NCBI GenBank assembly: GCA_963747235.1
Contig: CAVVEU010000024.1
Span: 160,001 to 224,000 of the forward strand
From: an uncultured Candidatus Rokubacteria bacterium
GTDB lineage: Bacteria > Methylomirabilota > Methylomirabilia > Rokubacteriales > CSP1-6
DNA: 64,000 bases
Direction of reading: 5' to 3'
This document shows positions 2,106 through 28,417 of the stretch, piece after piece; within the stretch, counting starts at the first letter, position 1, and each line of letters begins with the position of its first letter. The position numbers and the translations under genes are program-made. The notes beneath the pieces were generated by a model. The model was given only the letters and a program-made list of their open reading frames with translations. It made no database searches and had not been told where the DNA came from.

Positions 2106-4639
<2,534 letters not shown>

Positions 4640-4647
<8 letters not shown>

Positions 4648-5688
4648 GGAAGTGCTCGAAGCCGCCGCGCATCGTGACCGGCGCGCCGTCGGCGTCCACG
4701 AAGACGATCTCGCCCGGGGTCCCCTCGATCCGTCCGATCACGGTGAGCGCGGTGCCGGTCGCCTCGGCGAGGCCCGCGATGAGGTGGTCGGCCGCGGCGG
4801 GGTCGCACGTGAGCAGGAGCTCGTAGTCCTCACCACCGCTCACCGCCCACTCGCGCGCGTCGCCCCCGAGGGCGCGCGCCGCCTCGCGCGCCGCCCCCGA
4901 GACCGGGACCCGGTCGAGTTGCACGCGGGCGCCCACCCCGCTCTCCCGGCAGATGTGCGCGAGATCCGTGGCGAGGCCGTCGGAGCAGTCCATCATGGCG
5001 TGGACGCCGGGCGCCTGGCCCAGCCAGCGTCCCTCCGCGACGCGCGCGCGGGGCCGGAGGTGCGCCCGCGTGATCTCGGCAAGCCGCGCGCCGGCGACGC
5101 CCGCGTCCCGGGCGCGGTCGAGCCCGAGCTCGAGCGCGTGCAGGCCGGCGGCGGAGGCGCCCAGGCTGCCCGTCACCGCCACCGCGTCGCCGGCGCGGGC
5201 GTGCGAGCGAAGCCGCGGCTCGCCCGGATGGGTCCCGAGCAGCGTGACGTTGACCGTCCAGCCGCCCGGAGCGGCCGACGTGTCGCCCCCGACAACGCTC
5301 ACGCCGTGAGGCGCGGCGGCCTCCGCCATGCCCGCGTAGAAGGCGTCCACCGCCTCCACGTCCGTATCCGCGGGGACGGCCAGCGCCACCAGCGCCCAGC
5401 GCGGGATGCCGCCCATGGCCGCGATGTCGGAGAGGTTGACGGCCAGCGCCTTCCAGCCGATATCGGCGGGCGCGGCGGAGATCCGCCGGAAGTGGACGTC
5501 CTCGATCAGCAGGTCGGTGGTGGCGAGCAGCTTGTGGCCGGGCGGCACCGCGAGGACCGCGGCGTCGTCGCCGATGCCGACCTCCACGCCGGGCGCGGCT
5601 CCACTCGCGGCGGCGCTTCTCCGGATGCGACGGATCAGCCCGCGCTCGCCCAGGCCCTCCAGGCTCACCCGTTCGGGTGGCTCCGCGT

Positions 5689-9431: not shown

Positions 9432-10678
9432 ATCGGAGAGACTTCCTCGGCGGCGTCCTCTCGACGGGTCTCGCGAGCGCGCTCCTTCCGGGCGCCGCCG
9501 CGCGGGCCCAGGCCGGCGAGATCCGGATCGGCATGAGCGCCGCGTTCCGGGGCGCCGCGGCCGGCCTCGGCAGCGAGCTGTACCGGGGCGCCCATGCCTA
9601 CTACAGCGAGATCAACGCGCGCGGCGGCCTGTTCGGGCGGCAGCTCACGGTGGTCGCGCTCGACGATGGCTACAACCCGGACCCGTGCATCCGCAACACG
9701 ATCCAGCTCCTGGACCGCGAGAAGGTGTTCCTGCTCTCCAACTACGTGGGCACGCCGACCCTCACGCGCGCGCTGCCCGTCATCAAGCAGTACGCGGATC
9801 AGGCCGTGGTTCTGGTGGGCAACTTCACCGGCGCCCAGCCCCAGCGCGAGGCCCCATACGTCGATCAGGTCTTCAACATCCGGGCCTCCTACCGGCAGGA
9901 GATGGCGGCGCTGGTGGAGCGCTTCTGGCAGGCGGGGGCGCGGCGGTTCGGCGTCTACTACCAGATCGACGCCTACGGCCGCAGTGGCACCGACGGGGTG
10001 GCGCGGGCTCTCGCCGCGCGCAACGCCAAGATCGTGGCCGAGGCCACCTACGTGCGCAACGCCAAGTTCGAGGAGGACATGACCATCGCGGTCAATGCGC
10101 TCCGCGAGGGCGGCAGTGAGGTCGTGCTGTGCACCGGGGCCTACCAGGGCTGCGCCGCCTTCGTGCGCTCCGCGCGCGACGCGGGCTGGACCGCGCCGAT
10201 CTCCAATGTCTCGTTCGTGGGATCGGACGCCATGCTCGGATTGCTGGTCAAGCACGGCCGCGCGAAGAACCGCGACTACACGCGCGCCTTGATCAATTCC
10301 CAGGTGGTGCCGAGCTACGACGATACCGTCCTGCCGGGCGTGGTCGAGTACCGGGCCCTCATGGACAAGCACAACCCGCAGGTGCCCGAGGCGCTTCGCG
10401 ACGGCGCGTACACGCCGCAGAAGTACAGCTTCATCAGCCTCGAGGGCTACGTGAACGCGCGGGTGATCGTCGAGGCGCTGCGCCGGGCGGGGGCCAGCGC
10501 GGGGCGGTCGTCCTTCCGCCAGGCGCTGGAATCGCTCCGCGGCCTCGATCTCGGGATCGGCGCGCCGCTCACCTTCACGGCCGAGCGGCACCAGGGGCTG
10601 GACAGCGTCTACTTCACGCGGGTCGAGGGCGATCGCTGGGTGCCGGTCGCTGACTGGGCCGCTGCGGTCAAGGCATGA
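9428..10678 (+). CDS. Tat-exported periplasmic binding protein (LivK/Peripla_BP_6-like)
   Basis: AGGAGG RBS, MNRRDFL twin-Arg signal, DDGYNP, VGTPT, FNIRASYRQE, SLEGYVNA. Confidence 0.88.
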   Translation: MNRRDFLGGVLSTGLASALLPGAAARAQAGEIRIGMSAAFRGAAAGLGSELYRGAHAYYSEINARGGLFGRQLTVVALDDGYNPDPCIRNTIQLLDREKVFLLSNYVGTPTLTRALPVIKQYADQAVVLVGNFTGAQPQREAPYVDQVFNIRASYRQEMAALVERFWQAGARRFGVYYQIDAYGRSGTDGVARALAARNAKIVAEATYVRNAKFEEDMTIAVNALREGGSEVVLCTGAYQGCAAFVRSARDAGWTAPISNVSFVGSDAMLGLLVKHGRAKNRDYTRALINSQVVPSYDDTVLPGVVEYRALMDKHNPQVPEALRDGAYTPQKYSFISLEGYVNARVIVEALRRAGASAGRSSFRQALESLRGLDLGIGAPLTFTAERHQGLDSVYFTRVEGDRWVPVADWAAAVKA

Positions 10679-12544
10679 ACATGGGCATGGACAGTCTGAA
10701 GCGGGGCTGGAGGAAGCACGCGATGCGGAAGCGCGCGGAGGGTCCGGGATCGCTCGTCGAGACCACCGTCCCGGCCTCCCGGGCGCGGTTCGGCCTCCTC
10801 GGCAAGATCACGATCTTCCTCGTGCTGGTCCTGCTGCCGGTGGCGATCGTGAGCTGGGTCATCGCCTACCGGTCGCTGCAGGAGAACCTGAGCCGCGAGT
10901 TCACCGACAAGGGCAGCGCCATCGCCAACAGCCTGTCGAGCTCCGCGGCGGACCTCGTGGTCAATCGCGACGCGTCCACCGTGCAGGCCCAGGTCGACGA
11001 GTTCGCCAAGATCTCCGGCGTGGCCTACGTCATGGTCTACGATCCCCAGCGCGCCCTCATCGCCCACACCTTCGCGCCGGTGGTGCCCAAGGGCATCATC
11101 GAGAAGAACGTGGTGCCGGGGCAGGCGACCCGGCCGCAGGTCCAGGAGCTCACCTATCAGGATCCCCGCAGCGGGGGCGAGCGGGAGATCATCGACATCG
11201 GCGTGCCCATGCTGGGCGGCCGCCTCGGTACCGTGCGGGTGGGCATGGACAAGTCGATCATCATCACCGCGGCGGTCGGAGCCGGCAACTTCCTGCTCCT
11301 GGTGCTGGGCGGGATCGCGGCGGCCGCGGTGCTCGCGGGCGTGGTCTTCGCGCAGCGGATCACGCGGCCGGTCAACGCGCTCATGAGCGTGGCCGAGCGC
11401 GTGGGCCGGGGCGACCTCTCCCAGCTCGTGCCGGTCACCTCGCGCGACGAGATCGGCCAGATGGCGGTCACCTTCAACGAATCCATCGTGCGGCTGCGCT
11501 CGCTCGTCCAGACCGAGACCGACCGCGACGAGGAACGCCGCAAGCGCGAGGAGCTGCAGCAGAACATCATCAAGTTCCTCGACACGGTCGTGGAGATCGG
11601 CAAGGGCGACCTCACCCGACGCGGCGAGGTGAGCTGGGACGTGCTCGGCAACGTGGTGGACGCCATCAACCTGATGGTCGAGGAGATCGCCTCGATCGTC
11701 GGCGACGTGCGGCAGGCCGCCCTCCGCGTGGCCTCGGGCTCGCAGGACACCATCCGGATCACCGGCGAGCTCGCGGAGGCGGCGCAGGCCCAGACCCGCG
11801 ACGCGGTGAGCGTGACCCGCTCGGTGGCGGACGTGACGGTCTCGGTGCGCCAGGTCGCGGACAGCGCCGACCAGAGCGCCAAGGCGGCGCGCCAGGTGCT
11901 CCAGGCCGCGAGCAAGGGCGAGGGCGCGGTGCGCAACAGCCTCGCGAGCATGCAGCAGATCCGGGCCGAGGTGCAGACCATCTCCAAGAAGATCAAGTCC
12001 CTCGGCGACCGCTCGCTCGAGATCTCCAACATCGTGAACACCATCCAGGACATCGCGGCCCAGACGCACCTGCTCGCCCTGAACGCCTCCATCGAGGCGG
12101 CGGGCGCGGGCGAGGCGGGGCTGCGCTTCTCGGTCGTGGCGGACGAGGTCCGGAAGCTGGCCGAGCGGGCCACCCAGGCCACCCGGGACATCGGCACGCT
12201 CATCAAGGGCGTGCAGGTGGAGACCCAGGAGGCGGTGGTGGCGATGGAGGCCGGGACCCGCGAGGTCGAGTCCGGGTACGAGGTGAGCCTCAAGGCGGAG
12301 GAGGCCCTCCAGGAGATCGGGAAGATCTCGCAGACGTCCGCCGAGCTCGCCGCCGAGATCTCCCACGCGTCGCAGACGCAGGTCCGGGGCGCCGAGGCGG
12401 CCGCGGGCGCGGTGCAGGCGATCGCGGGCTCGGCGGTGAAGACCGAGCAGGGCGTGCAGCAGAGCCGGACAGAACGTCGAGCAGCTGGCCCGCCTGGCGG
12501 AAGAGCTGACCGCCAAGCTGTCCCGCTTCAAGCTGGCGAGCTGA
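10675..12544 (+). CDS. Methyl-accepting chemotaxis protein (PilJ-like): 2 TM, periplasmic sensor, 2 HAMP; late frameshift near 12470
   Basis: IAAQTHLLALNASIEAAGAGEAGLRFSVVADEVRKLAE; true end probably ...LSRFKLAS-TGA at 12544; start may be ATG 10723. Confidence 0.93.
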
Positions 12545-12548
12545 CGAC

Positions 12549-15502
12549 ATGGCCGATCGGCGCGAGCGCGAGCTGCTGCTGGGCATCTTCCTGATGGAGG
12601 CCTGGGATACCGCCGGGGCCATCGAGGAAGGGCTCGACCGGCTCACCTCCGCGGAGGCCCCGACCGAGGAGGCCCTCGCGACGCTCGTCGTCTTCGCGCA
12701 TCGCCTGAAGGGCTCGGCCGCGCTCCACGGCTTTCCCGGCGTCTCGGAGCTGGCCGGCGGGACCGAGCGGCTGCTCGAGCGCGCCCCCACCGCGTCGGCC
12801 GAGGAGCGGGCGCGCTCGGCCGTCTTCCTGGACGGCCTCGTCGGTCTCCTGAAGGAAGTCTTCGACGGCATCAGCGCGGTCGGGATGGAGGACTCGGCCC
12901 GCATCGGGGAGTTCAAGTCCCGCTATCCCATGTTCTTCTCCGCCGCGGTCGTCGCGCCCCGTCCGGTCGTCGAGCCGGCTGCCGACACATCGCCCGAGCC
13001 GTCCATGATCGCGCCGGCTCCGCTCCGGTCTCGCCGCTGATCGCCGATCTGCGGCGGTTCTTCGCCGAGGGCGGTGAGGTTCTGGAGTACTTCGTGCCCG
13101 AGGCCGCCGAGCATCTGGAGGCGATGACCACGGCCCTGCTCGCCATCGAGGGCGGCGCGCGCGACGAGGACACCCTCGCGACCGTCTTCCGGGCCGCGCA
13201 CACGCTCAAGGGCGCGGCGTACACGGTCGGCTGCGCGCCGCTCGGCGACGCCACCCACCAGATCGAGGATCTCCTCGACGCGGTGCGCGAGCACCGACTT
13301 CCCGTCACGCCGGCGGTGACCGAGGCGATCTTCGCGGGAACCGCGGCCATCAAGCGGGTGCTCCAGTCCGGGGCCGCGGTCTCCGACGAGGCCGCGCAGG
13401 CGCTGGAGCGCGCGACCCGCGACCTGTGCGTCCTGACGGCGTCGGAGAGCCTGCGCGAGCGCGCGGCCCCGCGGCCCGCGGTCGAGGTTCCCGAGCTGGT
13501 CGCGGCCGAGGCGCCGGAGCCTCGCGCTGCCGGCCTCGGTGGAGCTGCCGGCCTTCGTCCGGCCGGAGTTCCTGGCCCGGCTCGAGGCGCTCCCGCGGCC
13601 GGCCCCCCGCGCGGCGAGCGCGCCGACCGGTCCGAGCATCCGGGTGCCGGTGGAGCGGCTCGACACCCTGATGAACCTGGTGGGCGAGCTGATGATCGCG
13701 CGGAGCCGCCTCGACCGGCGTCTGGCCCAGCTCGACCAGGTGAGCGAGCTGCTCCTCGCCAGCCGCACGCGCCTGGGCCAGGTCGGCCGCGACTTCGAGT
13801 TTCGCCGGCAGGCGCCCACGATGCCTCGCGACGACCGCGCCGAGCGCGACGACGCGGGCGAGCTGCGCGACATCTCGGAGCTCTTCGCCGAGCTCGAGTT
13901 CGATCGCTACGACGACATCAGCATCCTGGCCCGCAGCGTGACCGAGATGTCGGCCGACGTGGCCGAGGTGCAGAGCCAGCACGCGATCCTGCTGCGCAAC
14001 ATCCGGGAGGATACCGTCCAGATCCAGCGCCTGACCGCGGCCCTCCGCAAGGAGATCACGCGCGCGCGCATGGTGCCCATCGGCCGGCTCTTCGCGCGGG
14101 TGGCCCAGCAGGTGCGGGAGGCGGCGCGGGCCACCGGGAAGGCGGTGACCCTCACGGTGCGCGGGGAGTCGGCGGAAGTGGACAACGGAATCATCGAGCA
14201 GATCGCCGACCCGCTGTTGCACCTGATCCAGAACGCGGTCGCTCACGGCATCGAGTCGGCCCCGGAGCGCGAGAGCCGCGGCAAGGCGGCCTCCGGCCAC
14301 GTGACCCTGTCCGCGTCCCAGGAGGGCAGCTTCATCCTGGTGGAGGTGGAGGACGACGGGCGCGGGATCGACACCGAGGTGTTGCGCCGGCACGCGGTGG
14401 AGCGCGGGTTCCTGCCCGCGGCCGAGGCCGCGACGCTGCCCGAGGGTGAGGTCCTGAACCTCATCTTCGTGCCGGGCTTCAGCACCGCCTCCGCGGTGAC
14501 CCAGACCGCCGGCCGCGGGGTCGGCCTCGACGTCGTGCGCACCAATGTGAGCCGGCTCAACGGCGAGATCCACGTCGAGACCGAGGCCGGCCGCATGACG
14601 CGCTTCGTGCTGAAGCTGCCCCTCACGATGGCGATCGCGGACGCGCTGATGGTGCGGTGCGGGTCGGAGACCGTGGCGTTCCCGCTCACCGCGGTGAGCG
14701 CGATGCGCTCGGTCGCGCCCCACGAGATCCAGACCGCGGGCGGGCGGGAGACCGTGCAGCTCGACGACCGGATGATCGACCTCGTCCGCCTCGATCGGGC
14801 CCTGGGCCTCGTCGCGGCTCCGCCGCCCTCGCGCCTGCCGGTGGTGGTAATGCGCGGCGGCGGCAAGCCGTTCGGCGTGGTGGTGGACGAGCTCCTGGGC
14901 AAGGAAGAGATCGTCATCAAGAACCTGGGCGCGCTCGTCGACGGGATGGGCCCGTTCTCGGGCGCCACGATCTCGGGCGAAGGTCGCGTGATCCTGCTCC
15001 TCGATCCGACCCTCCTCCGCGAGGCGGCGGCGCGAAAGCCGGCCGCCCCGGTGCGCGAGCCGGCAGGCGCGTCGCTCGACGACCTCGCCCCACCGTCATG
15101 CTGGTGGACGATTCGGTGAGCATCCGGAAGTTCGTGGGCCAGATGCTGGAAAAGGCCGGCTTCCAGGTCGTCACCGCGATCGATGGCCACGACGCGCTCG
15201 AGCAGCTCCTGGAGCGGACGGTGGACGTGGTCGTCACCGATCTCGAGATGCCGCGCGTGAACGGGTACGCCCTGATCGAGGACCTGAGGCGTCGGCCGGC
15301 GACCCGCGAGGTCCCGGTGATCGTGATGACGACCCGAGCGGGCGACAAGCACGCGAACCTGGCCCATCGCCTGGGCGTGCGCCACTACATCACGAAGCCG
15401 GTGGACGAGCAGAGCTTCGTACGGATCGTCGAGTCGGTCGCGGCGGGAGAGCGGGCGCTCGAAGTGGCCGGCGTCCCGCGCGCCGGGAGCCTGGTGGACT
15501 AG
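12549..15502 (+). CDS. CheA/ChpA-like hybrid kinase (Hpt-Hpt-dimerisation-HATPase-CheW-REC); frameshifts near 13020, 13520 and 15085
   Basis: AHRLKGSA and AHTLKGAA Hpt motifs; LMNLVGEL, HLIQNAVAHGIE, DDGRGID, GRGVGLDVV; C-terminal LVDDS...TDLEMP...ITKP. Confidence 0.92.
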
Positions 15503-15505
15503 GCG

Positions 15506-16399
15506 ATGGCCGACGCCAAGGTGCTCGTGGTGGACGCCAACCAGGACAGCCGGGTCGCGCTGGCCCATGCGCTCGCGGAGGCCGGCTACGAGGCGGCGGT
15601 CGCGACGAGCGGCTCGTTCGCGCTGACCATGCTCGAGTGGGAGCAGCCCGACCTCATCGTGAGCTACGCCAAGGTGCAGGACATGGACGGCTACGAGCTG
15701 TTCACGATGGTGCGGCGCGATCCCGCGACGAAGGACACGCCCTTCCTGCTCCTGGCCGGCCGCGATCGGCCCATCGCGCTGGCCGCCACCGAGGCCGGCG
15801 TGGACATGACGGTCACCGGGGACTTCACCCTGGCCACCGTGATGTCGCGCATCAAGGAGCTGCTCGGCGACGAGCCGCCCGCCGCCCCGGTGCGCCGCCC
15901 GGAGCCGCCCGCGGCCGCCAAGGGGCCCGCCAAGATGCCGGCGCGGCCGCCCGCCGCTCCCGCCGTCGCGGCGCCCGCCGCCAAGAGCGCGCTCGAGCCC
16001 GGGCGCAGCAGCTTCCAGGGCTCGCTCGGGGTGATGGACCTGACCGAGCTCACCCAGGTCATCTCGCTCGGGGTCAAGACCGGCGAGCTCCTGCTGTCGC
16101 TGTCGGGCGGCGAGGGGAGCATCCTCTTCGAGGCGGGCCGGGTCATCCACGCCGAGTTCGCGGGCAAGACCGGGGAGCCCGCCTTCGCGGCGATGGTGGG
16201 CGCCTCCCAGCGGGAAGGCGAGGCGCGCTTCTGCTTCAACCGCGCCGAGCGCGAGACGCTGGCGGGACGGCCGCGCACCATCTCGCGCAGCGTGGAGCAG
16301 CTCCTTCTGAGCGTGGCGCAGGCGATCGACGAGGGAACCCAGGGAGCCGACGGGCGCCGGGAGGCCGCCGCCGCCCGTGGACCGCGGCGGGACGGATAG
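15506..16399 (+). CDS. Atypical receiver domain + Pro-rich linker + DUF4388/PatA-N-like domain
   Basis: REC-like fold lacking canonical residues (VVDAN, DLIVSY, no KP); FQGSLGVMDLTELTQVISLGVKTGELLL...GSILFEAGRVIHAE. Confidence 0.8.
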   Translation: MADAKVLVVDANQDSRVALAHALAEAGYEAAVATSGSFALTMLEWEQPDLIVSYAKVQDMDGYELFTMVRRDPATKDTPFLLLAGRDRPIALAATEAGVDMTVTGDFTLATVMSRIKELLGDEPPAAPVRRPEPPAAAKGPAKMPARPPAAPAVAAPAAKSALEPGRSSFQGSLGVMDLTELTQVISLGVKTGELLLSLSGGEGSILFEAGRVIHAEFAGKTGEPAFAAMVGASQREGEARFCFNRAERETLAGRPRTISRSVEQLLLSVAQAIDEGTQGADGRREAAAARGPRRDG

Positions 16400-16402
16400 A
16401 TC

Positions 16403-17284
16403 ATGCCCAAGGTGCTGGTCGTAGACGACAGTCTCAGCGTTCGGAAAGTCGTGCAGCGGGCGCTGGAGTCGAAGCGCATCGAGGTGCTGTCGGCGGCCTC
16501 GGGAAGCGAGGCGATGGAGCAGATCGCGCGCGAGGCGCCGGACCTCATCGTCTGCGACGTGATCATGCCGGACATGGACGGCTACCAGATCTGCGACTTC
16601 GTGAAGAAGCATCCGACCCTCGGGCACACGCCGGTGCTGCTGATCTCGGGCATCGTCAACAGCACCGTGCTCGAGCGCGCCGCCAAGGTTCGCTCGGATG
16701 ACGTGATGCGGAAGCCCTTCGCGGCCGACGAGCTCCTGCATCGCATCGAGAGCCTGCTGCCCGCCGCGGGGCGCCCCGCGCCGGCCGCTGCGCCCCCGCC
16801 GGTTGCCGGGGCTGCCCCGACCGCGTCGGCCGCGGCTCCGACCCCGGCGCCCGAGCGTCGTGCGCCCCAGCCCGAACGCCCGGCTCCCGTCGCGGAGCCG
16901 GTCGCGGTCGCCGCGCCGGCGCCTGCGCCGGGTCCCGATCTCAAGGCGTTGCTCGCCGGGGTGGCCGAGCTGGCCGGGGTCTCCCTGATCGCGCTGATCG
17001 ACCGCGAGGGGGCCCTGATGGAAGTCGCGGGCGGGCTCCTTCCCGAAGCCGAGCTCGCGGGGGCCCTCGCGGCTTGTCTCGTCGAGTCGACCGACGGGGT
17101 GGGCCGGGCCCTGACCCAGGGGCGTCTCCAGAGCTTGATCCTCGAATACGACGCGGGTGTCGTGCTGCTGAATGCCGTCGGTGCGGGCGCGATGCTCGCG
17201 GTCGTTCTTGGCGATCCGGCGGTGCTCGGCAAGGTGCGGTACCACGTGAAGAAAGCGCTCCCGGACCTGGTCCGGGCGGTGTGA
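16403..17284 (+). CDS. Receiver domain + Pro/Ala linker + roadblock/LC7 (MglB-like) domain
   Basis: Canonical REC (VVDDS, VCDVIMP, MRKPF); C-terminus GVSLIALIDREGALM...LQSLILEYDAGVVLL...LGKVRYHVKK. Confidence 0.85.
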   Translation: MPKVLVVDDSLSVRKVVQRALESKRIEVLSAASGSEAMEQIAREAPDLIVCDVIMPDMDGYQICDFVKKHPTLGHTPVLLISGIVNSTVLERAAKVRSDDVMRKPFAADELLHRIESLLPAAGRPAPAAAPPPVAGAAPTASAAAPTPAPERRAPQPERPAPVAEPVAVAAPAPAPGPDLKALLAGVAELAGVSLIALIDREGALMEVAGGLLPEAELAGALAACLVESTDGVGRALTQGRLQSLILEYDAGVVLLNAVGAGAMLAVVLGDPAVLGKVRYHVKKALPDLVRAV

Positions 17285-17295
17285 GGCCTTCCTCC

Positions 17296-20233
17296 ATGAG
17301 AACGTCCTATCATTCCGTGTCCAGCGCCCAGCGACTCTCGTCGTGGCTGATGGCGGTGCTGGGGCTGGCCGCGTATGTCGGCCTCATCTACGTCCTGACC
17401 CTCGTGCCTCTTCAGTTCGAGGTGCCGCTGCCGAAGTGGGCCGTCGCGAGCATCCCTCCGGTGGCGTACGGCCTGCTGGTCTGGCTATGGGTTCGCCGTC
17501 CATCCGTCGTGCGCTGGCTCGTGGGCACCGCGGTCCTGAGCGGCCTCCACGTCTTGCTGAGCATGTCGCGGGAGCCGCTCAGTGCGCTGCTCGATCCGGC
17601 GCTCGCGGGGCGCGCCCTGCCCTGGATGCTGCCGCCGCCCTTGCCGGAGCTGATCGGCGTGATGCTGCTCCTGGTGCCGCTCCGTGATCTGCTGCACGCG
17701 CCCGTCCGCCTTCCCCGCGAGCGGAGCGCCGTTGCCGCGCGCCCGTCGGCGAGTCTTCGGGCTCGCGCCGCCACGCCCGCGCGCGTGCAGGCCGCGCCCC
17801 CGCTCGAGGGCATGGGATCCCTGAGCGACGCGCTGCTCTCGCGAAACGAGCCGGCTCCCGAGCCGGGCGTGATTCCCGCTCCGATGATGCCGATGGCGCC
17901 GCCCCCGCCCCGCGCCGGTACCGGACGAGGAGCCCCGTCGCCGCCGCGCCGCCGCCGCGAAGCGCCGGCGCGAAGCGCAGCCGGCCCGTGCGCCCGGCCG
18001 ATCGGAAGTGGTGCTGCGGATCGCGCTCGACCGCGTCATGGACCAGTTTCCCCCCGGCACCTTCCTCGCCCCGGAGGATGAGGTCGCGGCGAGCCTGAGC
18101 GACCCCGGCTTCCTGCGGATCTCGGGCGAGCTCGTGGTCACCCAGCTCTCGGAAGGCGTGGCGCGGGTCGCGTGGAACGATATCGCCGACCAGTTCCCGG
18201 CCCACCTGGTGGGATTGAGCAAGGCCGAGATCGCCGAGCACCTGGGAGACGGTCTACGGCTTCCCCTCGATGAGGTCATCAGCCAGTTCCCGCAGGAGCT
18301 GTTCGTCGCGGACACGCCGGAGGTCGAGATCCACGGGCTCCACCGGATCCCGGTCCCGTTCCATCCGATGGAGGAGTCTGCCGCGCCGAGCGAGACGGCC
18401 GCGGTGATCCCGCCGGAGCCGGAGATCACACCGGCACCGGAGATCAGGCCGATGCCGCTGCTGGACGCGCCGACCGCGGCGACGAAGGAGAGCAAACCGG
18501 TGCCGCCCGCGGTGCCGTCGTGGATGGCGCCGCAGCGCGTGGAGCATCTCGATCCGGTCGAGATCGAGGCACCCGCCGCGCCCCAGCCGATCGAGGTGCA
18601 GGAGCATGAGCCGGCCCCGGTCGACCGCTGGGCCGCCGCTCCCGAGAGCGACGAGCCGACGGTGCGCATCTCCTGGAGTCGCGTGGCAGCGGAGCTTCCC
18701 GTGGAGGCGTTCAACGTCCCGCTGGACCAGGTGGCCGAGCGGATGCGTCAGCCCGGCGCGCTGCTGATCCCGCAGTCGCTCGTGCTGCCTCAGCTCGCGG
18801 AGGGCCTGATCCGCGTGGGCTGGGACGTGATCGCGCCGCAGTTCCCCCGTGAGGCAATGGCCGTGTCGGACACGGAGATGGCGGAGCGCCTGCCGAACGG
18901 CCTTCGTCTCCCGCTGGACGAGATCGTCCGGCAGGTTCCACTGGATCTCTTCATGGCCGTCGGCCCGGCCGCCGACGTCCGCGGCCTCGAGTACTTTCCG
19001 GCGCCCTTCCAGCCCCTCGTGTCGGATCCGGCACCCGAGGCGCCGGTCGAAGCGCCCGTTCCCGAGCCCGAGATCGAGACCCCCGGGATCGAGACTGTAG
19101 TCGCCGAGGAGTCGCGGGAGCTCGTGGTCGAGCCTGCGCCCGCTCTCGTCCTGCCCACGGAACCCGAGCCCATCGTGGCCGACGATCCGGTGGTCGACCT
19201 CGTGCCGGATCCGATCGAGGAGCTTCCGGTCGTCCCGATGGTCGAGCCGGACCGTCCTCTCGATCTCGACACGCACGTCGTGCTCGACGAGCCTTCGCGG
19301 GTCGTGACCGCTCCGAGCCCGGCGATCGCGCCGGCCCGCGCGCCGCTGCCCCAGCCCGCATTCTCCTGGCCGAAGCCGTCGCCGGCCCGGGCCGCCGTCA
19401 CGACCTGGGCCGATCCGACGCCGGCCGCGCCGACCCCCGCCGCGCTCGTCCCGGGCCCCGCGGAGGCGGCGGAGGCCAGGCGCATCGTCGCGCTGCTGGC
19501 GCCGATCGCGTCCTTCGACGTGAGCGTCCAAGCGGTCGAGGGCGTCACCGTCTTTGCGATGGCCTCGCCCACGGTGGCGCATGAAACCGCGGTCGCGGTG
19601 GCGGGTCTCGCGCTGCCCCTGTTCACGGATCGCCGTCCGCCGTGGCCGGTGGATCAGATCACGTTGCGCGGGCCGGAGACGGCCGTCGTGCTGACCCCGC
19701 TCGGTGGTCCGGGCGATCGTGGCCCCGTCCTCGCGGCCGCGGCGCCCCGCGGCGGCGCCCTCGCGCTGCTCGAGATCCTCTGCCGGCGCGCCGCGGACGA
19801 CCGCGCCGGGCGCCCCGCGGGCCCGGGCCACGATGTGGTTCCGGCGGTCAGCTCGAGCCTGGCCCCGGCGGCGGTGCCGAGCCGGGCGGCGGCTCTCACG
19901 CGAGGGCTGACCGCGTTCGGCGACGTCACCGCGTCGGTGCTGAGAGACGCGGAAAGCGAAGCGGTTCTCTACTTCTTCCTGCCGGCGGGAGACGACGTGC
20001 CCGCGGTGGGAGCGTTCGCGCAGGACCTCCACGCCGTGATGCGCAAGGCGGCGGGGTCAGGCGCCGTGTTCCGGACCGCGATCCTGCGATCCGGCGACAC
20101 GCTCCTCGTCATCCAGCCCGAGGAAATCGGGCATGGGCGGTCGATCGTCATCGTCGCGGGTGGATCCGTCACCCGGCCCGGCTTGGCCTATCGCCAGGTC
20201 GAGCGCGCGGCGGCGACGCTGATGTCGGCCTGA
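17296..20233 (+). CDS. Large hypothetical membrane protein: ~4 N-terminal TM helices, duplicated ~119-aa domain, Pro/Glu linkers, two degenerate roadblock-like domains; frameshift near 17910
   Basis: ORFs 17074..18081 and 18008..20233 appear to be one gene; the internal repeat and C-terminal pattern are visible in translation. Confidence 0.65.
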
Positions 20234-20242
20234 GGCGACTCG

Positions 20243-20860
20243 ATGTCGATCATCAACTACGCGCAAAAAGAGATCAGCTTCAAGATCGTCTACTACGGCA
20301 CCGGCGTGGCCGGGAAGACCGCCAACCTCCAGTACATCTACCGCGGGCTCCCGGACGTCAACCGCGGCAACATGGTGTCGCTCGCGACGGGAGACGATCG
20401 GACCCTCTTCTTCGACTTCCTGCCGGTCTCCGCGGTGACGGTGCGGAACTTCGTGGCCAAGTTCCAGCTCTACACGGTGCCGGGCCAGATCTACTACAAC
20501 ATGACGCGCAAGCTCGTGCTGCGGGGCGTCGACGGCATCGTCTTCGTCGCGGACTCGCAGTGGGATCGCCTGCCCGAGAACGTGGAGAGCTTCAGAAACC
20601 TCGAAGAGAATCTCAAGGAGTACGGGTACAATCTTGACGAGATCCCGTACGTGATCCAATACAACAAGCGGGATCTGCCCAACGTGGCTCCGGTGGAGTA
20701 CCTCGAATACATGCTGAACCGGAAAAGTCGGCGGGTCCCGTACTTCGAATCGGTCGCCGTCGAGGGCAAGGGCGTGTTCGACACGCTCAACACTGTCTCT
20801 CGCATGGTCCTCGTCGCCGGGTTCGGACAAGAACAGGGGGCGCTCAATGAGTCTAAATGA
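20243..20860 (+). CDS. mglA: MglA-family small Ras-like GTPase
   Basis: KIVYYGTGVAGKT, DRTLFFDFLP, LYTVPGQ, GVDGIVFVADSQ, QYNKRDLP. Confidence 0.95.
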   Translation: MSIINYAQKEISFKIVYYGTGVAGKTANLQYIYRGLPDVNRGNMVSLATGDDRTLFFDFLPVSAVTVRNFVAKFQLYTVPGQIYYNMTRKLVLRGVDGIVFVADSQWDRLPENVESFRNLEENLKEYGYNLDEIPYVIQYNKRDLPNVAPVEYLEYMLNRKSRRVPYFESVAVEGKGVFDTLNTVSRMVLVAGFGQEQGALNESK

Positions 20861-21335
20861 CAACCTGGCCATCCACGAGGAGGACGCGCAGCGGATCAAC
20901 GGCGTCCTCCTGCACTTCCTGGGCGAGTCGGGTGCGATGGAATCGCTCCTGATCGACCGGAGCGGACAGCTCCTGGCGCGCGGCGGCGCCTCGCGGTCGC
21001 TCGACACCGTGTCGCTCTCCGCGCTCGCCGCGGGCGCGTTCAGCTCGACCGCCGCGATGGCGCGGCTGCTCGGCGAGACCGAGTTCACCATGCTGTTCCA
21101 TCAAGGCGTGAAGGAGAGCATCCACGTGGCCGCGGTGGACGAGCACGCGATCCTGCTCGCCATCTTCGACAGCCGGACCACGGTGGGCATGGTGCGTCTC
21201 TTCGCCAAGGAGGCGGGCACCGCGATCGGGGCCATCCTGGCCGAGACCCGGACGCGGCCTCAGCGCACCGGCGTGCTGTCCACGCCGCTGGGCAAGGACG
21301 AGGTGCAGTCCTCGCTGCGGGAGCGTCCGGTCTAG
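20847..21335 (+). CDS. mglB: MglB roadblock protein (MglA GAP)
   Basis: LIDRSGQLLA, DTVSLSALAAGAF, LGETEFTMLFHQG, FDSRTTVGMVRL. Confidence 0.92.
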   Translation: MSLNDNLAIHEEDAQRINGVLLHFLGESGAMESLLIDRSGQLLARGGASRSLDTVSLSALAAGAFSSTAAMARLLGETEFTMLFHQGVKESIHVAAVDEHAILLAIFDSRTTVGMVRLFAKEAGTAIGAILAETRTRPQRTGVLSTPLGKDEVQSSLRERPV

Positions 21336-21354
21336 CTGACGGACACCGACTACC

Positions 21355-23433
21355 ATGGCGCAGACTGACAACAAGACCTCGCTGTCCTCGGAAGAGAAGC
21401 GGTCCCTGGCCGAGTCGGCCCGGCTCTGCGAGATGATCGTGGAGGCCAACCCCTCGGACACCGGCGCGCTCGAGACCCTGAAGGAGATCTACACCAAGCT
21501 AGGTGATCGGGAGAACCTGGCCCGGGTCGTCGCGCGCCTCGCCGGTACGGTGGGGGGGCGGCCGTCCGCGAGCGTGGCCCCGGCCCCGGAGCCCATGACC
21601 GCGGGGACGACGGGTCGCGCGCCGTCGACCGAGGAGATGGAGGCGCTCGCCGCGTCCATCGAGGTCGCGCCGGCCCCGTTGCCCGGCAAGCGGGGCGGCG
21701 CCTCGCCGATCGAGCGGCGCCAGGGCAGCCTGTCGCGCCTCGGGGACCGGCTGGTGGCCGAGAAGCTCATCAGCCCGGACCAGCTCCAGCGCGCGCTCGC
21801 CGAGCAGAAGGGGAGCGCCGACAAGCTCGGGACGATCCTGGTGCGGCTGCAGTTCATCACCGAAGACAGCCTCGTCTCGTTCCTGTCGAAGCAGTACGCG
21901 ATGCCCGCGATCACGGTGGCGCAGGTGGATCCGGATCCGGACGTGCTCAAGCTCGTGCCCGAGCAGATCGCCAAGAAGCACAGCGTGCTCCCGATCAAGC
22001 GGATCGGGAACGTCCTCACCCTGGCGATGGCGGATCCCACCAACGTCTTCGCGCTCGACGACGTCGGCTTCATGACCGGCCTGCAGATCCAGCCGGTGGT
22101 CGCCTCCGAGGCGGCCATCCGGAAGGCCTTCGAGCGGCTCTACGAGACCGGCGCCAGCGTCAACGACATGATGAGCGAGCTGGAGGAGGCCGACACCGAC
22201 GTCGAGGTCGTGGAGGACGGCGAGGCCGCCTTCTCCAAGGCCGACGTTTTCGACCTCAAGGAGTCGGCCGACGAGGCTCCGGTCGTCCGGCTCATCAACA
22301 TGATCCTGACCGACGCCATCCGGCGGGGCGCCTCCGACATCCATCTGGAGCCCTACGAGAAGGTCTTCCGGGTCCGGTTCCGTATCGACGGCGTGCTGCA
22401 CGAGATCATGACGCCGCCCAAGCGCCTCGAGGCCGCCCTGACCTCGCGCGTGAAGATCATGGCCACGATGGACATCGCGGAGCGCCGACTTCCCCAGGAC
22501 GGCCGCATCAAGCTCCGCTACCACCAGCGCGAGATCGACTTCCGCGTCTCGACGCTGCCGACGATCTTCGGCGAGAAGACCGTCATGCGTATCCTGGACA
22601 AGGAAGCGCTCCAGCTCGACCTGGGCGCCCTCGGCTTCGACCCGTGGAGCCTCGAGCAGTTCAGCAAGGCGATCCACAGCCCGTACGGCATGATCCTGAT
22701 CACCGGGCCGACCGGCTCCGGCAAGACCACCACGCTGTACTCGGCCATCCACACCATCAACTCGCCGGACATCAACATCATGACCGCCGAGGATCCGGTC
22801 GAGTACAACCTGAAGGGCGTCAACCAGGTGCAGGTCAACGACGAGATCGGGCGCACCTTCGCGGCCTGTCTGCGAAGCTTCCTGCGGCAGGACCCGGACG
22901 TGATCCTGGTCGGCGAGACCCGAGACCTCGAGACGGCCCAGATCGGCATCCGCGCCGCCCTGACCGGCCACCTCGTGCTCTCCACGCTGCACACCAACGA
23001 CTGCCCGTCGACGCCCGCCCGGCTCCTCGACATGGGCATCCCGCCCTTCCTCGTCTCGTCCTCGCTCCAGCTCATCCTGGCCCAGCGGCTCGGACGCCGG
23101 ATCTGCAAGGACTGCAAGGAGCCCTACGAGGCGAACGAGGAGAGCCTGGTTCCCTACGGGCACGTGTCCCAGGGGCTCGGCGCCGTGAACTTCTACAAGG
23201 GCAAGGGCTGCCAGACGTGCAACTTCACCGGCATGAAGGGACGGGTCGCCATCTACGAGGTGATGCCCATCACCACCGAGCTCCGCGATCTCATGCTGCG
23301 CAACGCGACCACCGCGGAGATCCGCGATACCGCCTGCTCGCAGGGCATGAAGACGCTGCGGCAGAACGCGCTGCAGAAGGTGGTGGACGGCGTGACGACG
23401 GTGGAGGAAGTGCTGCGGGTGACGATGGGCTAG
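21355..23433 (+). CDS. pilB: Type IV pilus assembly ATPase PilB/GspE family with N-terminal TPR-like and MshEN segments
   Basis: Walker A GPTGSGKTT, EDPVEY, LRQDPDVILVGE, STLHTN, CKDC...CQTC; RLGDRLVAEKLISPDQLQRALAEQ. Confidence 0.9.
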   Translation: MAQTDNKTSLSSEEKRSLAESARLCEMIVEANPSDTGALETLKEIYTKLGDRENLARVVARLAGTVGGRPSASVAPAPEPMTAGTTGRAPSTEEMEALAASIEVAPAPLPGKRGGASPIERRQGSLSRLGDRLVAEKLISPDQLQRALAEQKGSADKLGTILVRLQFITEDSLVSFLSKQYAMPAITVAQVDPDPDVLKLVPEQIAKKHSVLPIKRIGNVLTLAMADPTNVFALDDVGFMTGLQIQPVVASEAAIRKAFERLYETGASVNDMMSELEEADTDVEVVEDGEAAFSKADVFDLKESADEAPVVRLINMILTDAIRRGASDIHLEPYEKVFRVRFRIDGVLHEIMTPPKRLEAALTSRVKIMATMDIAERRLPQDGRIKLRYHQREIDFRVSTLPTIFGEKTVMRILDKEALQLDLGALGFDPWSLEQFSKAIHSPYGMILITGPTGSGKTTTLYSAIHTINSPDINIMTAEDPVEYNLKGVNQVQVNDEIGRTFAACLRSFLRQDPDVILVGETRDLETAQIGIRAALTGHLVLSTLHTNDCPSTPARLLDMGIPPFLVSSSLQLILAQRLGRRICKDCKEPYEANEESLVPYGHVSQGLGAVNFYKGKGCQTCNFTGMKGRVAIYEVMPITTELRDLMLRNATTAEIRDTACSQGMKTLRQNALQKVVDGVTTVEEVLRVTMG

Positions 23434-23458: not shown

Positions 23459-23893
23459 TCAGACGGGAGAAACCCGCCAGGTGCCGCGCAGCCGATCCAC
23501 GGCGCGGCCGAGCGCGGTGCGAACCCCCTCGTTGTTCACGTTGCGATCCGCGACGAGCGTCACGTAGCCGACCGGGCTGCCCCCCACGAAGACGGTCCCG
23601 TCGTCCGCCGAGAAGAGCGCGGTGCGGAAGGCGCCCCGTTCCAGCCGGCTCGCTCCCAGCTCCAGCTCACGCCCGAGGGTGGCCGCGAGCGCGGCGAGCG
23701 CCTCCACCGGGAAGCGGGGCGGCAGCTCCGAGGTGATGACGAGGCCGTCCGGCGTCACGATGAGCCCCCCGCGCACGCCATCGAGACGGGTCAGCTCGGA
23801 GAGGGTCTCGCGGAAGGCCTGCGCCCGCGACGGGCGCGGCGCGGGCGGGCCGCCCGGAGGCGTCGAATCGGCGGTGGTCTGCGGGTCGGCCAT
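23459..23893 (-). CDS. Stand-alone roadblock/LC7 protein
   Basis: LDGVRGGLIVTPDGLVITSEL...EALAALAA...NVNNEGVRTAL. Confidence 0.88.
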   Translation of the reverse strand: MADPQTTADSTPPGGPPAPRPSRAQAFRETLSELTRLDGVRGGLIVTPDGLVITSELPPRFPVEALAALAATLGRELELGASRLERGAFRTALFSADDGTVFVGGSPVGYVTLVADRNVNNEGVRTALGRAVDRLRGTWRVSPV

Positions 23894-23897
23894 CGGC

Positions 23898-24680
23898 TCA
23901 GGCCTTGATGTTCAGATCCGTCCACAGACGGCCGACCTGCACCAGCCCCGCTCCCACCTCGACCTCGCGCGCGAGCGCGACGCCCAGGATCACGCCGCCG
24001 TCGCTGCGAAGGAAGGTCGTCTCCGCGGCGCCCTCGATCACGCCCCGTCGCATCGCGCCGAGCCCGGCGCGGGCGAGCGTGGCGGAGGCGATGCGGTAGA
24101 CCTGCGTCATGTGCAGCCTGAGGTGCTTCTGGCGCTCCTCGCTCCCCTGGGCGAACACGAGCGTGCCGTCGGCCCGCGTCAGCACGAGGTCGTGAGCGCC
24201 CGGAGGCAGCCGCAGCCGCTCGGTGGAGATCGTCCCGATGGCGGTCGAGGCTCCCGGCGCGGGGGCGGTCCAGGTGGCCACCATCTCCTGCAGCGCCTTC
24301 GCTTCCGGGAAGTCCGGGAAGTACTGGATCGCCCGGTCGAGGAATGGCCGGCACCCCTCGATGTCGCCCTCTTCCAGCGCGATGCGCGCCAGGCCGAACA
24401 GGGCGCGCGGGTGGTAGGGATCGAGCCCGAGCACGCGCCGGAACGATGCCTTGGCCGCGGGCATCTCGCGAAACACGACGTGCAGGTAGGCGTCCAGCAG
24501 GTGCCCGACCGCGATGTTGGGCGAGACGCGCAACCCCTCGGTGATCAGCTCGGCGGCGTCCTCGTAGCGCCCTTCGTGGCGGTACTGGTCGGCCAGGCGG
24601 AAGAGAGAGGAGGCCGAGCGTGGCTTGACGAGCCCGGTGATGCCGCTCCAGGTGCGCTCGAGGAACGTCGCTAGGCCCAC
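23898..24680 (-). CDS. TPR repeats + C-terminal roadblock-like domain
   Basis: LADQYRHEGRYEDA...SPN, VLGLDPYHPRALFGLA (TPR); DLVLTRADGTLV...LGAMRRGVIEG...VEVGAGL. Confidence 0.75.
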   Translation of the reverse strand: MGLATFLERTWSGITGLVKPRSASSLFRLADQYRHEGRYEDAAELITEGLRVSPNIAVGHLLDAYLHVVFREMPAAKASFRRVLGLDPYHPRALFGLARIALEEGDIEGCRPFLDRAIQYFPDFPEAKALQEMVATWTAPAPGASTAIGTISTERLRLPPGAHDLVLTRADGTLVFAQGSEERQKHLRLHMTQVYRIASATLARAGLGAMRRGVIEGAAETTFLRSDGGVILGVALAREVEVGAGLVQVGRLWTDLNIKA

Positions 24681-26796: not shown

Positions 26797-28417
26797 TCAG
26801 CCGGCCGCGATCCCTCGCTCCGAAGGCAGGACGTATCCTTGCTGCAGATCGCGCGCGCGCAGGGCCGGGTCGCGCTCCGCGGGATCGCCGTAGCCGCCGC
26901 CGCCCGGCAGCAGGAGCTCCACCAGGTCGCCGGGGCGTAGCGTCTGCTCGGCCTTGGGATTGGCGGGCGCGCGCCCGTTGATCAGCACCTGCCCGGGCAG
27001 GCCGGGTCGGCCGCCGAAGAACCCCTGCGCCGGGATCCGCGTGCGATCGCACAGGACGGAGCAGGTGGCCGGCTCGTCGGAGCGCACCCGGAACGCGATC
27101 ACCTGGCCGAGCCCGCCGCGCTGGCGGCCGTCGCCGCCCGAGCCGCCGCGAAGGGCCTTGCGCTCGATCAGCAGCGGCGCGAGCGATTCGATGACCTCGA
27201 CCGGGGTCCCGAGCACGCCCGACGGGAACGCGGTGGCGGACAGCCCGTCCTGCTGGGGACGCGCCCCGGTGCCGCCCGAGCTGAAGAAGGTGTAGACCCA
27301 CGGGCGTGCGGTCGGCGTTCTTGCCGGTGAGCTGGAGCCCCCAGATGTTCGCGGAGCCCTCGGCCATCACCCGGTCCGGCAGGGCTTCCTTCAGGGCGCC
27401 CGCCACCGCGTGGGGCAGGAAGTGGCCGACGATGTGCCGGGCCGCCACCGGGGCGGGGGGCCGCACGTTCAGGATGGAGCCCTCGGGCGCGGTGATGCGG
27501 AGCACCCGGAAGGCACCCTCGTTGTTGGGGACGTCGGGGCTCACGATGACCTTCACCCCGTAGGTCGTGTAGGCCTCGGTGTAGTTCATCACCACGTTGA
27601 TGCCGCGCCGGCTGGCGGGGGAGGAGCCGGTGAAGTCGACGAGAAGATCGTCCCCCTTGATCTCACAGCGCACCGCGATCGTGATCGGCTCGTCGAAGCC
27701 GTCCGAGGTGATGGAGTACCGGTACTCGCCGGGCCGCAGCGCGGCGATCGCCTGGCGCATGGCCCGCTCGGTGCGGGAGATGATCTCGTCGGCCAGCGGC
27801 TCCAGCCGCTCGAGGCCGAATTCCTCCATGAACTCGAGCAGGCGCTCGCCCCCGACGGTGCCGCCCGCCACCTGCGCGTGGAAGTCGCCCATCACGAGGT
27901 CGGGGACGCGGGTGTTGGCCCGGATGATCGCGGCGAGCGACTCGTTGAGCCGGCCGCCTTCGTAGAGCTTCATGATCGGGATGAAGAGACCTTCCTCGTA
28001 GACCTCACGCGCCTCGGCGGAGAGCACGTGGCCGCCGATGTCGGCGCTGTGGCAGGTGGAGGCGAAGAAGGCGATGCAGTCCGACCCGCGGAAGACCGGA
28101 TTGCAGACCGTGACGTCGTTGAGATGCCCCGAAGTCTTCCAGGGATCGTTGGTGATGAGCACGTCGCCGGGCCGGAGCGTCTCGAGCGGGTACGCGGCGA
28201 GGAAGTGCTTCATGGCCAGGGCCATCGAGTTGATGTGCCCGGGCGTGCCGGTGACGGCCTGGGCGATCATGTAGCCGCGCCGGTCGAAGACGCCCGCGGA
28301 GAGATCGCCCGCCTCGCGCACGATCGAGGTGAACGAGGTGCGCATGAGCGCGGCAGCCTGCTCGTTGACCACCCCGATCAGCCGGTTCCAGCAGATGTCG
28401 AGCGTGATCGGATCCAT
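26797..28417 (-). CDS. Hydantoinase B/5-oxoprolinase subunit; frameshift near 27300
   Basis: RTSFTSIVREAGDLSAG, TNDPWKTSGHLND, HSADIGG, PGGGGYGDP. Confidence 0.9.

Follow-up and report, generated by a model that had tools for sequence, protein, structure and literature searches.

A predicted membrane-anchored protein with a duplicated repeat domain and two Roadblock-like units, encoded between chemosensory genes and mglA-mglB-pilB in an uncultured rokubacterium

An uncultured Candidatus Rokubacteria bacterium encodes, immediately upstream of mglA, a large protein for which no published description was found in the literature searched (subscription journals lay outside the coverage). The gene, here called X, lies at 17296..20233 on the forward strand of the stretch of DNA analysed (the window, 64 kb of contig CAVVEU010000024.1) and encodes about 978 amino acid residues (aa) once one C of the run 17908-17911 is removed. 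Protein X consists of four N-terminal hydrophobic helices, two repeat domains, a proline-rich linker and two Roadblock-like C-terminal units. The gene is intact in relatives, the C-terminus resembles Roadblock proteins at the level of the predicted fold, and both the gene order around X and its coupling with mglA are conserved within one family of the Methylomirabilota. We give about even chances to the view that X is a membrane scaffold of a chemosensory, MglA-MglB and PilB module.

Integrity and domain architecture of X

In the assembly as given, X is distributed over two reading frames. Frame 1 is open over 16702-18081; X starts there at the ATG at 17296 and runs into a stop at 18081. According to the list of open reading frames (ORFs), frame 2 is open over 17888-20233 and overlaps frame 1. 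Comparison with the homologous proteins P0004 and P0005 placed the break at the junction between MAPPPP and APVPDEE, where the DNA of the window reads ATG GCG CCG CCC CCG CCC C GCG CCG GTA. P0004 (978 aa, 95% identical) starts with MRTSYHSVSS... as in frame 1, ends as in frame 2 and reads ...MAPPPPAPVPDEEPRRRR... without interruption across the spot where the window changes frame, which shows the C-run of the window to be one base too long. Of 8000 candidates scored in a search that covered about 5.8 billion proteins, 224 were relatives; the best 120 of these 224 are for the most part full-length homologues of 950-1050 aa. Where names are attached to homologues or related contigs, they mostly point to Candidatus Methylomirabilota or Rokubacteria. 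The sequence-only reading of the window, which had proposed a single gene of about 980 aa with a frameshift near 17910, was correct in both respects.

The extra C is nonetheless present in the assembly, and a GTG from which translation could start, at 18008, sits exactly at the first repeat. A frameshift that is genuine in this organism, leaving either a pseudogene or a membrane protein of 261 aa followed by a soluble protein of 741 aa from this GTG, is however highly improbable. The frames share 194 nt, or 74 nt with the GTG as the start of the second product, and the break falls in a homopolymer inside a proline tract of varying length among relatives, a typical site of assembly errors. Fifteen of the 18 same-genus genomes searched match X, all with uninterrupted frames of 859-1399 aa that contain no internal stops. 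Moreover, Logan contigs from 4/4 soil-metagenome runs (four studies, one bridging contig per run) omit one letter at 17908. These contigs, compared over 17500-18300 of the window, differ from it at 4-10 other positions and, judged by sequence, come from close strains or related populations; their identity with reads of the source sample is not established. X is a single intact gene in nature and its split a one-base homopolymer difference, for which an error in the assembly of the source genome (5.57 Mb, 42 contigs, 88% complete) is the likeliest cause.

The anatomy of X is described in the coordinates of P0004, whose length equals that of the window gene minus the extra base. No Pfam or NCBIfam family matched X at E <= 1 in either frame, barring three sub-threshold matches on the hydrophobic N-terminus; the NCBIfam families without a match include the MglB model. 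A Kyte-Doolittle scan of the intact P0004 detected hydrophobic segments at about aa 17-37, 48-66, 70-90 and 111-129, in agreement with the approximately four transmembrane (TM) helices noticed in the sequence-only reading. Arginine clusters precede TM1, lie between TM2 and TM3 and occur densely after TM4. By the positive-inside rule, these Arg-rich stretches suggest an N-in/C-in topology, which would place the remainder of the protein in the cytoplasm. The anchor is followed by a basic, proline-rich stretch that leads to the first repeat copy; a shorter linker joins the two repeats, and a Pro/Ala/Glu-rich linker of 140 aa, probably disordered, precedes the C-terminal 262 residues. The proline fraction of the linker reaches 0.28 (50-aa blocks), and both its length and its sequence vary among homologues.

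The two repeat domains are gapless duplicates. Region 17990-18400 aligns with 18641-19051 with 57/132 identities (43%), 0 gaps and an E-value of 4e-36, as had been read from the sequence, with a domain size of about 125 aa instead of the 119 aa first estimated. Both copies are kept in 11 same-genus loci, in which orthologues are 68-92% and paralogues 38-47% identical. The motif R[ILV]x[LW]xx[ILV]xxx[FLV]P, corresponding to an internal sub-repeat already suspected, occurs six times in X, three times per copy at matching relative positions, and nowhere else in all six frames of the window. Residue shuffles of X contained on average 0.0055 motif matches, a figure that is generous since the motif was defined after viewing the sequences. 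An AlphaFold2 model of the domain, calculated from 24 copies of 12 genomes, has a mean predicted local distance difference test score (pLDDT) of 82.4 and a predicted template modelling score (pTM) of 0.70; it is confident over residues 1-100 (block means of 83-95 to residue 100), and each motif is predicted to form a short strand and then a helix.

This model has no counterpart among the structures searched. Foldseek retrieved no PDB entry at E <= 0.001 (best E 3.4), and a VIA comparison with 48,161 chains gave two chains with Z >= 2 (best 2.3); Z values of 7-8 are typical of VIA even for models without clear relatives. An hmmsearch of PDB sequences with the repeat and C-terminal profiles returned rows at chance level (E 0.45 and 1.5), and comparisons of the repeat profile with PATAN, the N-terminal region of PilB, receiver domains, MglB, the response regulator with Roadblock domain encoded upstream of X (RR-Roadblock) and both C-terminal units of X all remained at E >= 0.24. 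No Pfam family was found in 33 members of the repeat family tested (0/33). In the ESM Atlas, a search with repeat copy 2 led to unnamed clusters with a best score of 0.80, below the level counted as more than a lead. With no match among Pfam, NCBIfam, PDB sequences or PDB folds, the earlier inability to place the repeat in a family is borne out.

The repeat defines a family of its own. A profile search of 1.84 billion representatives retrieved 230 representative proteins at E <= 0.001 and 173 at E <= 1e-10. Copy numbers were determined for the best 150 of the 230 proteins with hidden Markov models (HMMs) built in this analysis. One repeat copy with the C-terminal module was present in 91 proteins and two copies with the module in 10, i.e. 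the module was detected by the first HMM in 101/150 of these best proteins. Proteins in which the module was not detected carried one copy (23 proteins, many of them fragments), two (9), three (13), four (3) or seven copies (1). A broader HMM yielded weak matches to C-terminal unit 2 in several multi-copy proteins, e.g. in P0140 (independent E-values, iE, of 1e-6 and 0.008). About four hydrophobic segments open most full-length members, and the general design of the family is an anchor, a variable number of repeats and a Roadblock-like end, of which the two-copy form is one variant. Orthologues with a single copy resemble copy 2 (35-53% identity) more closely than copy 1 (28-44%). In a tree of 38 repeat copies, copy 2 of the window falls among the single copies of other genera, and a separate recent duplication appears in another genus with support of 98/98; the copy number has thus changed more than once.

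The C-terminus of X probably forms a single-chain pair of divergent Roadblock-like units, a pseudo-dimer, for which the support is at the level of the predicted fold and short of proof. An AlphaFold2 model of 19445-20230, calculated from 12 sequences, reached a pLDDT of 84.4 and a pTM of 0.84 and consists of two units with the order α1-β1-β2-α2-β3-β4-β5-α3, located close to the positions given in the sequence-only reading. The predicted helices (H) and strands (E) are H5-18, E25-31, E34-40, H46-61, E71-75, E79-85, E95-101 and H106-120 in unit 1 and H146-154, E162-168, E173-179, H185-205, E211-216, E219-229, E232-241 and H245-260 in unit 2. The pTM value suggests that the two modelled units pack in a fixed mutual arrangement, although it does not indicate which interface is used. 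In MglB, a five-stranded antiparallel sheet lies between α2 and α1/α3, the dimer is formed via α2 and β3, and the Roadblock dimer binds MglA as a 2:1 complex (PMC3199381; this and the other papers cited are drawn upon in part). The element order described there, α1-β1-β2-α2-β3-β4-β5(-α3), is present in both predicted units of X.

In the VIA comparison, the ten best of the 48,161 chains for unit 2 were all Roadblock proteins (Z 5.2-6.9, 95-114 residues covered). They were headed by MP1-p14 (2zl1_B; Z 6.9, root-mean-square deviation (rmsd) 2.7, 106 residues aligned) and the Asgard Roadblock proteins 7yh1_D (Z 6.8) and 9jue_D (Z 6.7), and included MglB from Myxococcus xanthus (6hjm_A; Z 6.2, rmsd 3.1, 112 of 128 residues aligned), MglB from Thermus thermophilus (3t1r_A; Z 6.1) and a Roadblock protein from Streptomyces (3kye_A; Z 6.1). 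Rows of β-lactamases and profilins followed with Z 4.9-5.1. The best Roadblock match of unit 1 was MglC (7cy1_A; Z 4.3, rmsd 3.4, 105 of 120 residues aligned). With deeper local alignments, hhalign related unit 1 to unit 2 with a probability of 62% and an E-value of 7.4e-5 over 102 columns; with the 12-row alignments, the C-terminal units gave no significant hhalign result, and the best E-value in a BLASTP comparison of the two C-terminal halves with each other was 4.9.

Several results weigh against an assignment of these units to the Roadblock fold. The MglC match of unit 1 is tied with effector domains of IclR (IclR/GAF-like, Z 4.3-4.4). No chain reached Z 8 in VIA and nine reached Z 5, and Z values below 8 may reflect a common arrangement of elements alone. 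Foldseek found no PDB match to the C-terminal model at E <= 0.001; its rows were HPPD structures with TM scores <= 0.17 and rmsd values of 16-21. Neither unit reaches the Pfam family Robl_LC7 (PF03259) at E <= 1 (0 families for the 781-aa frame). The best hhalign result against MglB or RR-Roadblock, that of unit 2 with RR-Roadblock, is in register but not significant (E 0.0067, probability 5.7%); for unit 1 the E-values were 0.29-0.41, and the control comparison of MglB with RR-Roadblock attained a probability of 90%. Finally, the alignments behind the two AlphaFold2 models are shallow (24 and 12 rows). The two degenerate roadblocks of the sequence-only reading are supported at the level of the predicted fold: the topology of both units and the ten best matches of unit 2 favour them, whereas unit 1 is weaker and tied with IclR. 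The attribute degenerate is apt, as Robl_LC7 is not matched by sequence.

Gene order and phyletic distribution

The order cheA, response regulator (RR), RR with PATAN domain (RR-PATAN), RR-Roadblock, X, mglA, mglB and (pilB) is kept across genera of one family of the Methylomirabilota, the family of the window (f1). The repeat profile matched 86/251 genomes of the phylum; by family, it was found in 84/158 genomes of f1, in none of eleven other families and in 1 of 20 genomes of a twelfth. Twenty loci from other genera were compared, 19 from f1 and the single hit outside the family. RR-Roadblock is located directly upstream of X in 19/20 and mglA directly downstream in 19/20; mglB follows mglA in 18 of 19, and pilB follows in 11/20. 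Across these loci MglA is 69-89% identical, and the pilB homologues after mglB are 56-84% identical. The order RR-Roadblock, X, mglA, mglB, pilB also occurs in those same-genus loci that are long enough.

MglA of the window's type is present in 77/158 genomes of f1. In a tabulation by hand, 70 of the 158 genomes possess both the repeat and MglA (the unpublished genome G229 included), 14 the repeat only, 7 MglA only and 67 neither. Among the MglA-only genomes, 6/7 have mglA within about 1.3 kb of the contig start, and in 3/14 of the repeat-only genomes the contig ends inside or just past X, so that much of the discordance is attributable to fragmentation. Co-occurrence of the repeat with mglA, which had been suggested as a check, is hence strong inside this one family.

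A search of genome contigs for related loci with the first alignment retrieved 16 loci, all from close relatives, its patterns being too specific for distant members. One locus (L044, G201:C48, 9488-11589) contains two repeats at about 490 nt from mglA, and the double Roadblock was not detected; RR-Roadblock was not found within 9 kb upstream, and the locus appears truncated or rearranged. Five contigs that are 74-92% identical to the repeat domain of the window (L016, L017, L020, L023 and L030) belong to bins named Acidoferrum, Limnocylindria, Deferrimicrobiaceae, Nitrosotalea and Dormiibacterota; these bins are probably mislabelled or contaminated.

In the window, the stop codon of RR-Roadblock lies 12 nt 5' of the start of X, and X ends at 20233, 10 nt ahead of the mglA start at 20243, confirming the placement directly before mglA. 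RR-PATAN, RR-Roadblock, X, mglA, mglB and pilB are all separated by gaps of <=20 nt or overlap (Table 1). The window MglB scores 80 bits with the NCBIfam MglB model NF052242, under the cut-off of 200 bits. The last gene of this row is named PilB, putatively, from its sequence and from T2SSE and MshEN matches on its relatives. Upstream, a periplasmic binding protein gene on the same strand precedes the MCP gene (Pfam). The Hpt ORF and the CheA core share a reading frame, with a stop and about 500 nt between them, an arrangement that could represent a split CheA, an in-frame error or a separate Hpt protein. Downstream, genes for a Roadblock/LC7 protein and a TPR protein are convergent to pilB, and Roadblock folds thus occur, or in X are predicted, at five places in the locus: RR-Roadblock, the two units of X, MglB and 23459-23893. 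Further along on the reverse strand, only the last ~150 of 519 Hydantoinase_B positions are recognisable at 26800-27366 and a C-terminal piece of Hydantoinase A at 28420-29517, and in both cases the stretch upstream matches nothing. These stretches resemble gene remnants or a damaged region and are uninformative on the general assembly error rate.

Table 1 Features of gene X and its surroundings (positions in the window; in the last two rows, on the contig named)
Feature	Position	Strand	Basis
MCP	10675-12594	+	Pfam
Hpt ORF	12549-13040	+	Pfam
CheA core (dimerisation, ATPase, CheW domains)	13539-15119	+	Pfam
Single-domain response regulator	15116-15502	+	Pfam
RR-PATAN (response regulator + PATAN, DUF4388)	15506..16399	+	Pfam
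RR-Roadblock (response regulator + Roadblock/LC7)	16403..17284	+	Response_reg E 6e-25, Robl_LC7 E 5.6e-8
X: membrane anchor, four hydrophobic segments	17344..17682	+	Kyte-Doolittle scan
X: C4 run, one base too many (frameshift)	17908..17911	+	Sequence; P0004 junction; 4/4 runs
X: repeat copy 1 (127 aa, three strand/helix units)	17999..18379	+	Self-alignment, motif, AlphaFold2 model
X: shorter linker between the two repeats	18380-18649	+	Composition
X: repeat copy 2	18650..19030	+	Self-alignment; closer to the single copy of other genera
X: Pro/Ala/Glu-rich linker	19031..19456	+	Composition
X: putative Roadblock-like unit 1	19457..19804	+	AlphaFold2 model, residues 5-120
X: putative Roadblock-like unit 2	19859..20224	+	AlphaFold2 model, residues 139-260
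MglA	20243..20860	+	Pfam Arf and Ras; R53, T78, Q82 in translation
MglB, Roadblock protein	20847..21335	+	Pfam Robl_LC7 E 8.5e-14
Putative PilB-type type IV pilus ATPase	21355..23433	+	Translation; homologues; T2SSE/MshEN on relatives
Fourth Roadblock/LC7 protein	23459-23893	-	Pfam E 1e-7; genome-wide Robl_LC7 search
TPR protein	23898-24680	-	Pfam
Sister-family X-like gene, L013 (G029:C200)	3636-5519	-	N-terminal and double-Roadblock HMMs
Sister-family X-like gene, L014 (G027:C110)	3549-5351	+	N-terminal and double-Roadblock HMMs

Proposed role and alternatives

From these results we infer a scaffold role for X, along with its cytoplasmic orientation and every binding partner named in the following. 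X would be an inner-membrane protein with four helices, from which a long cytoplasmic part would extend with the repeat domain or domains on flexible proline-rich tethers. The double Roadblock would serve as a protein-docking platform, by analogy to the Roadblock dimers in MglB, MglC and Ragulator. Of the partners that come into question, which include MglB and MglA, the Roadblock domain of RR-Roadblock is the best conserved; docking of RR-Roadblock would carry chemosensory phosphorylation to the membrane, and the tethered repeats would engage the MglA/MglB/PilB side. In a far-reaching version, X would be a single-polypeptide analogue of Ragulator: an anchored Roadblock pseudo-heterodimer that reads the phosphorylation of the regulator, with a tethered domain of new fold that captures MglA-GTP or PilB. 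The place and time of type IV pilus extension would then be under chemosensory control, and the number of repeat copies (1-7) would tune the clients held. We regard this full version as quite unlikely.

A number of observations count against this scaffold reading or, as with the sister family below, against a simple role of X in MglA docking. Synteny among kin genomes is not independent and shows a stable operon rather than a repeated association. Families f7 and f8 of the phylum possess more distant MglA proteins (19/21 and 14/15 genomes) but the repeat protein in 0/21 and 0/15, and X is therefore not a general partner of MglA. In a sister family, the genomes G029 (94% complete) and G027 (97% complete) have no MglA match, yet an X-like protein is present in each (Table 1); RR-Roadblock is the sole Pfam Roadblock match of either genome, and no MglB was found. 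In these X-like proteins, HMMs detected the double Roadblock at E 1e-87 to 1e-97 and the anchor at E 1e-7 to 1e-8; a proline-rich linker is present as well, whereas the repeat domain is absent. The genes directly follow RR-Roadblock in a cheB-cheW-RR-RR-Roadblock row. It follows from this pattern that anchor and double Roadblock travel with RR-Roadblock and the che cluster, and that the repeat domain tracks mglA, mglB and pilB. In G112 (88% complete, genus 12), X is directly followed by mglB (L050, G112:C140, 9883-11504), and mglA was not found in the genome. The repeat of G112 is weak and shortened, covering profile positions 2-101 only; four further genomes of its genus (G114, G115, G116 and G118) show the same weak repeat match and no MglA match, and this subclade may have lost mglA.

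Outside the family, the sample comprised two genomes and four metagenome contigs. Three of the four metagenome relatives (L051-L053, with 2-3 repeats) lie upstream of MshEN-PilB, and mglA was not detected in these loci; in L051, the locus continues after PilB with PilC, a PilS-like kinase and a sigma-54 regulator. The association with the pilus motor extends beyond the phylum in these relatives. L051 (77-16000) and L053 (2427-16642) have three repeats each and share a conserved gene row of radical SAM, DUF2344, an AAA_22/peptidoglycan-binding protein, X, (TPR in L053) and the MshEN protein with PilB. In L054 (604-3951, GC 61%), a repeat/Roadblock gene lies between pilB and mglA-mglB. Its product (604-2790, 728 aa) contains two repeat domains (iE 1e-8 and 2e-9), an HHH_3 domain and a C-terminal Robl_LC7 domain of 25.3 bits (Pfam cut-off 23), in one sequence and as one unit rather than two; a membrane anchor was not predicted. 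As a distant relative with a recognisable Robl_LC7 domain in the C-terminal position, L054 favours the Roadblock reading of the C-terminus of X.

These relatives also bear on two other explanations. The double Roadblock could mimic the MglB dimer and bind MglA directly, X then being a membrane receptor or a regulator of the GTPase-activating protein (GAP) or guanine nucleotide exchange factor (GEF) type, a bacterial counterpart of Ragulator. The 2:1 complex of the MglB Roadblock dimer with MglA (PMC3199381, in part), the matches of unit 2 to MP1-p14 (Z 6.9) and to both solved MglB proteins (Z 6.1-6.2), and the position of mglA, 10 nt after X and adjacent in 19/20 other-genus loci, all agree with direct binding. 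We nevertheless consider it unlikely, given that the gene directly behind mglA already supplies a canonical MglB, that X has no significant sequence similarity to MglB and that G029 and G027 keep anchor and double Roadblock beside RR-Roadblock with MglA not found. A predicted complex of the double Roadblock with MglA scored 0.00 against a mark of 0.32, which speaks neither for nor against binding. The scaffold envisaged in the sequence-only reading thus stays plausible, but its presentation of the pseudo-dimer to MglA is unsupported, as the sister genomes retain the double Roadblock without MglA. Alternatively, X may be no more than a chemosensory or pilus accessory that, e.g., marks a pole or a membrane site for PilB or RR-Roadblock, with the adjacency of mglA as a matter of operon organisation. 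The X-like gene in the che cluster of sister-family genomes in which mglA was not found and the loci L051-L053 upstream of MshEN-PilB fit this explanation. It appears doubtful to us in view of the tight coupling of repeat and MglA across the genera of f1 (70/14/7/67) and of L054, where repeats and a Roadblock domain again occur together with mglA and mglB.

Relation to known systems and implications

Roadblock platforms around MglA are of a known kind; the novelty of X lies in its fusion as one anchored chain, in its location between a Che pathway and mglA-mglB-pilB, and in a repeat domain assigned to no family. With MglB from T. thermophilus and M. xanthus, the GAP of MglA, X shares the predicted order of secondary structure elements including the third helix, and the place beside mglA. 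In contrast to MglB, X has no detectable sequence similarity to it, carries two unlike units per chain where MglB is a homodimer, and is membrane-anchored with extra domains; a separate gene, two positions downstream, codes for the true MglB. MglC from M. xanthus is a non-GAP platform of Roadblock fold in a polarity module and the best Roadblock match of unit 1 (Z 4.3), which makes it a possible analogue. It bridges RomR and MglB in a RomR/MglC/MglB complex with Roadblock-to-Roadblock contacts (PMC10329633, in part). MglC is however a small soluble homodimer, and the Z value of unit 1 is low and tied with unrelated folds.

The Ragulator pair LAMTOR2/LAMTOR3 (MP1-p14), a Roadblock heterodimer that acts as a scaffold of Rag GTPases, is the best match of unit 2 and, as is predicted for X, presents two unlike Roadblock units at a membrane beside a small GTPase. 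Ragulator is tethered to the membrane via LAMTOR1. Unlike X, it is eukaryotic and consists of two separate chains, with a lipidated partner as anchor instead of helices of its own; the likeness of X is at fold level only. In M. xanthus, the MglA effectors SgmX, FrzS and SopA recruit the extension ATPase PilB and connect it with MglA at the pole, SgmX being one of the soluble adaptors (PMC11580455, in part). X and relatives are encoded beside pilB and may, by analogy, fill a comparable place, with no relation in sequence or fold: SgmX is a TPR protein, whereas X has no TPR. The occurrence of PATAN and Roadblock genes near mglA was noted before (PMC4316618); the part of that paper drawn upon here makes no mention of any membrane protein of the X type. 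The unknown protein of the 'Group 3' MglA systems in that part of the same paper was considered as a member of the X family and rejected, being a receiver-like and winged-helix protein of β- and γ-Proteobacteria.

With a confident model, no PDB fold match and at least 230 unannotated sequence clusters, the repeat domain is worth considering for structure determination and for the definition of a new family. To our knowledge, nearly all that is understood of MglA/MglB switches comes from Myxococcus and Thermus, in which all known Roadblock partners are small soluble dimers. The X family points to a Roadblock platform that is fused in one chain, fixed to the membrane and wired by its operon to chemosensory genes as well as to MglA, MglB and PilB. 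If the scaffold role holds true, X would be a prokaryotic parallel to the membrane-tethered Roadblock scaffolds of eukaryotic GTPases and, for a large phylum of uncultured soil bacteria, a candidate for the link from Che-type signals to a small GTPase and the pilus motor.

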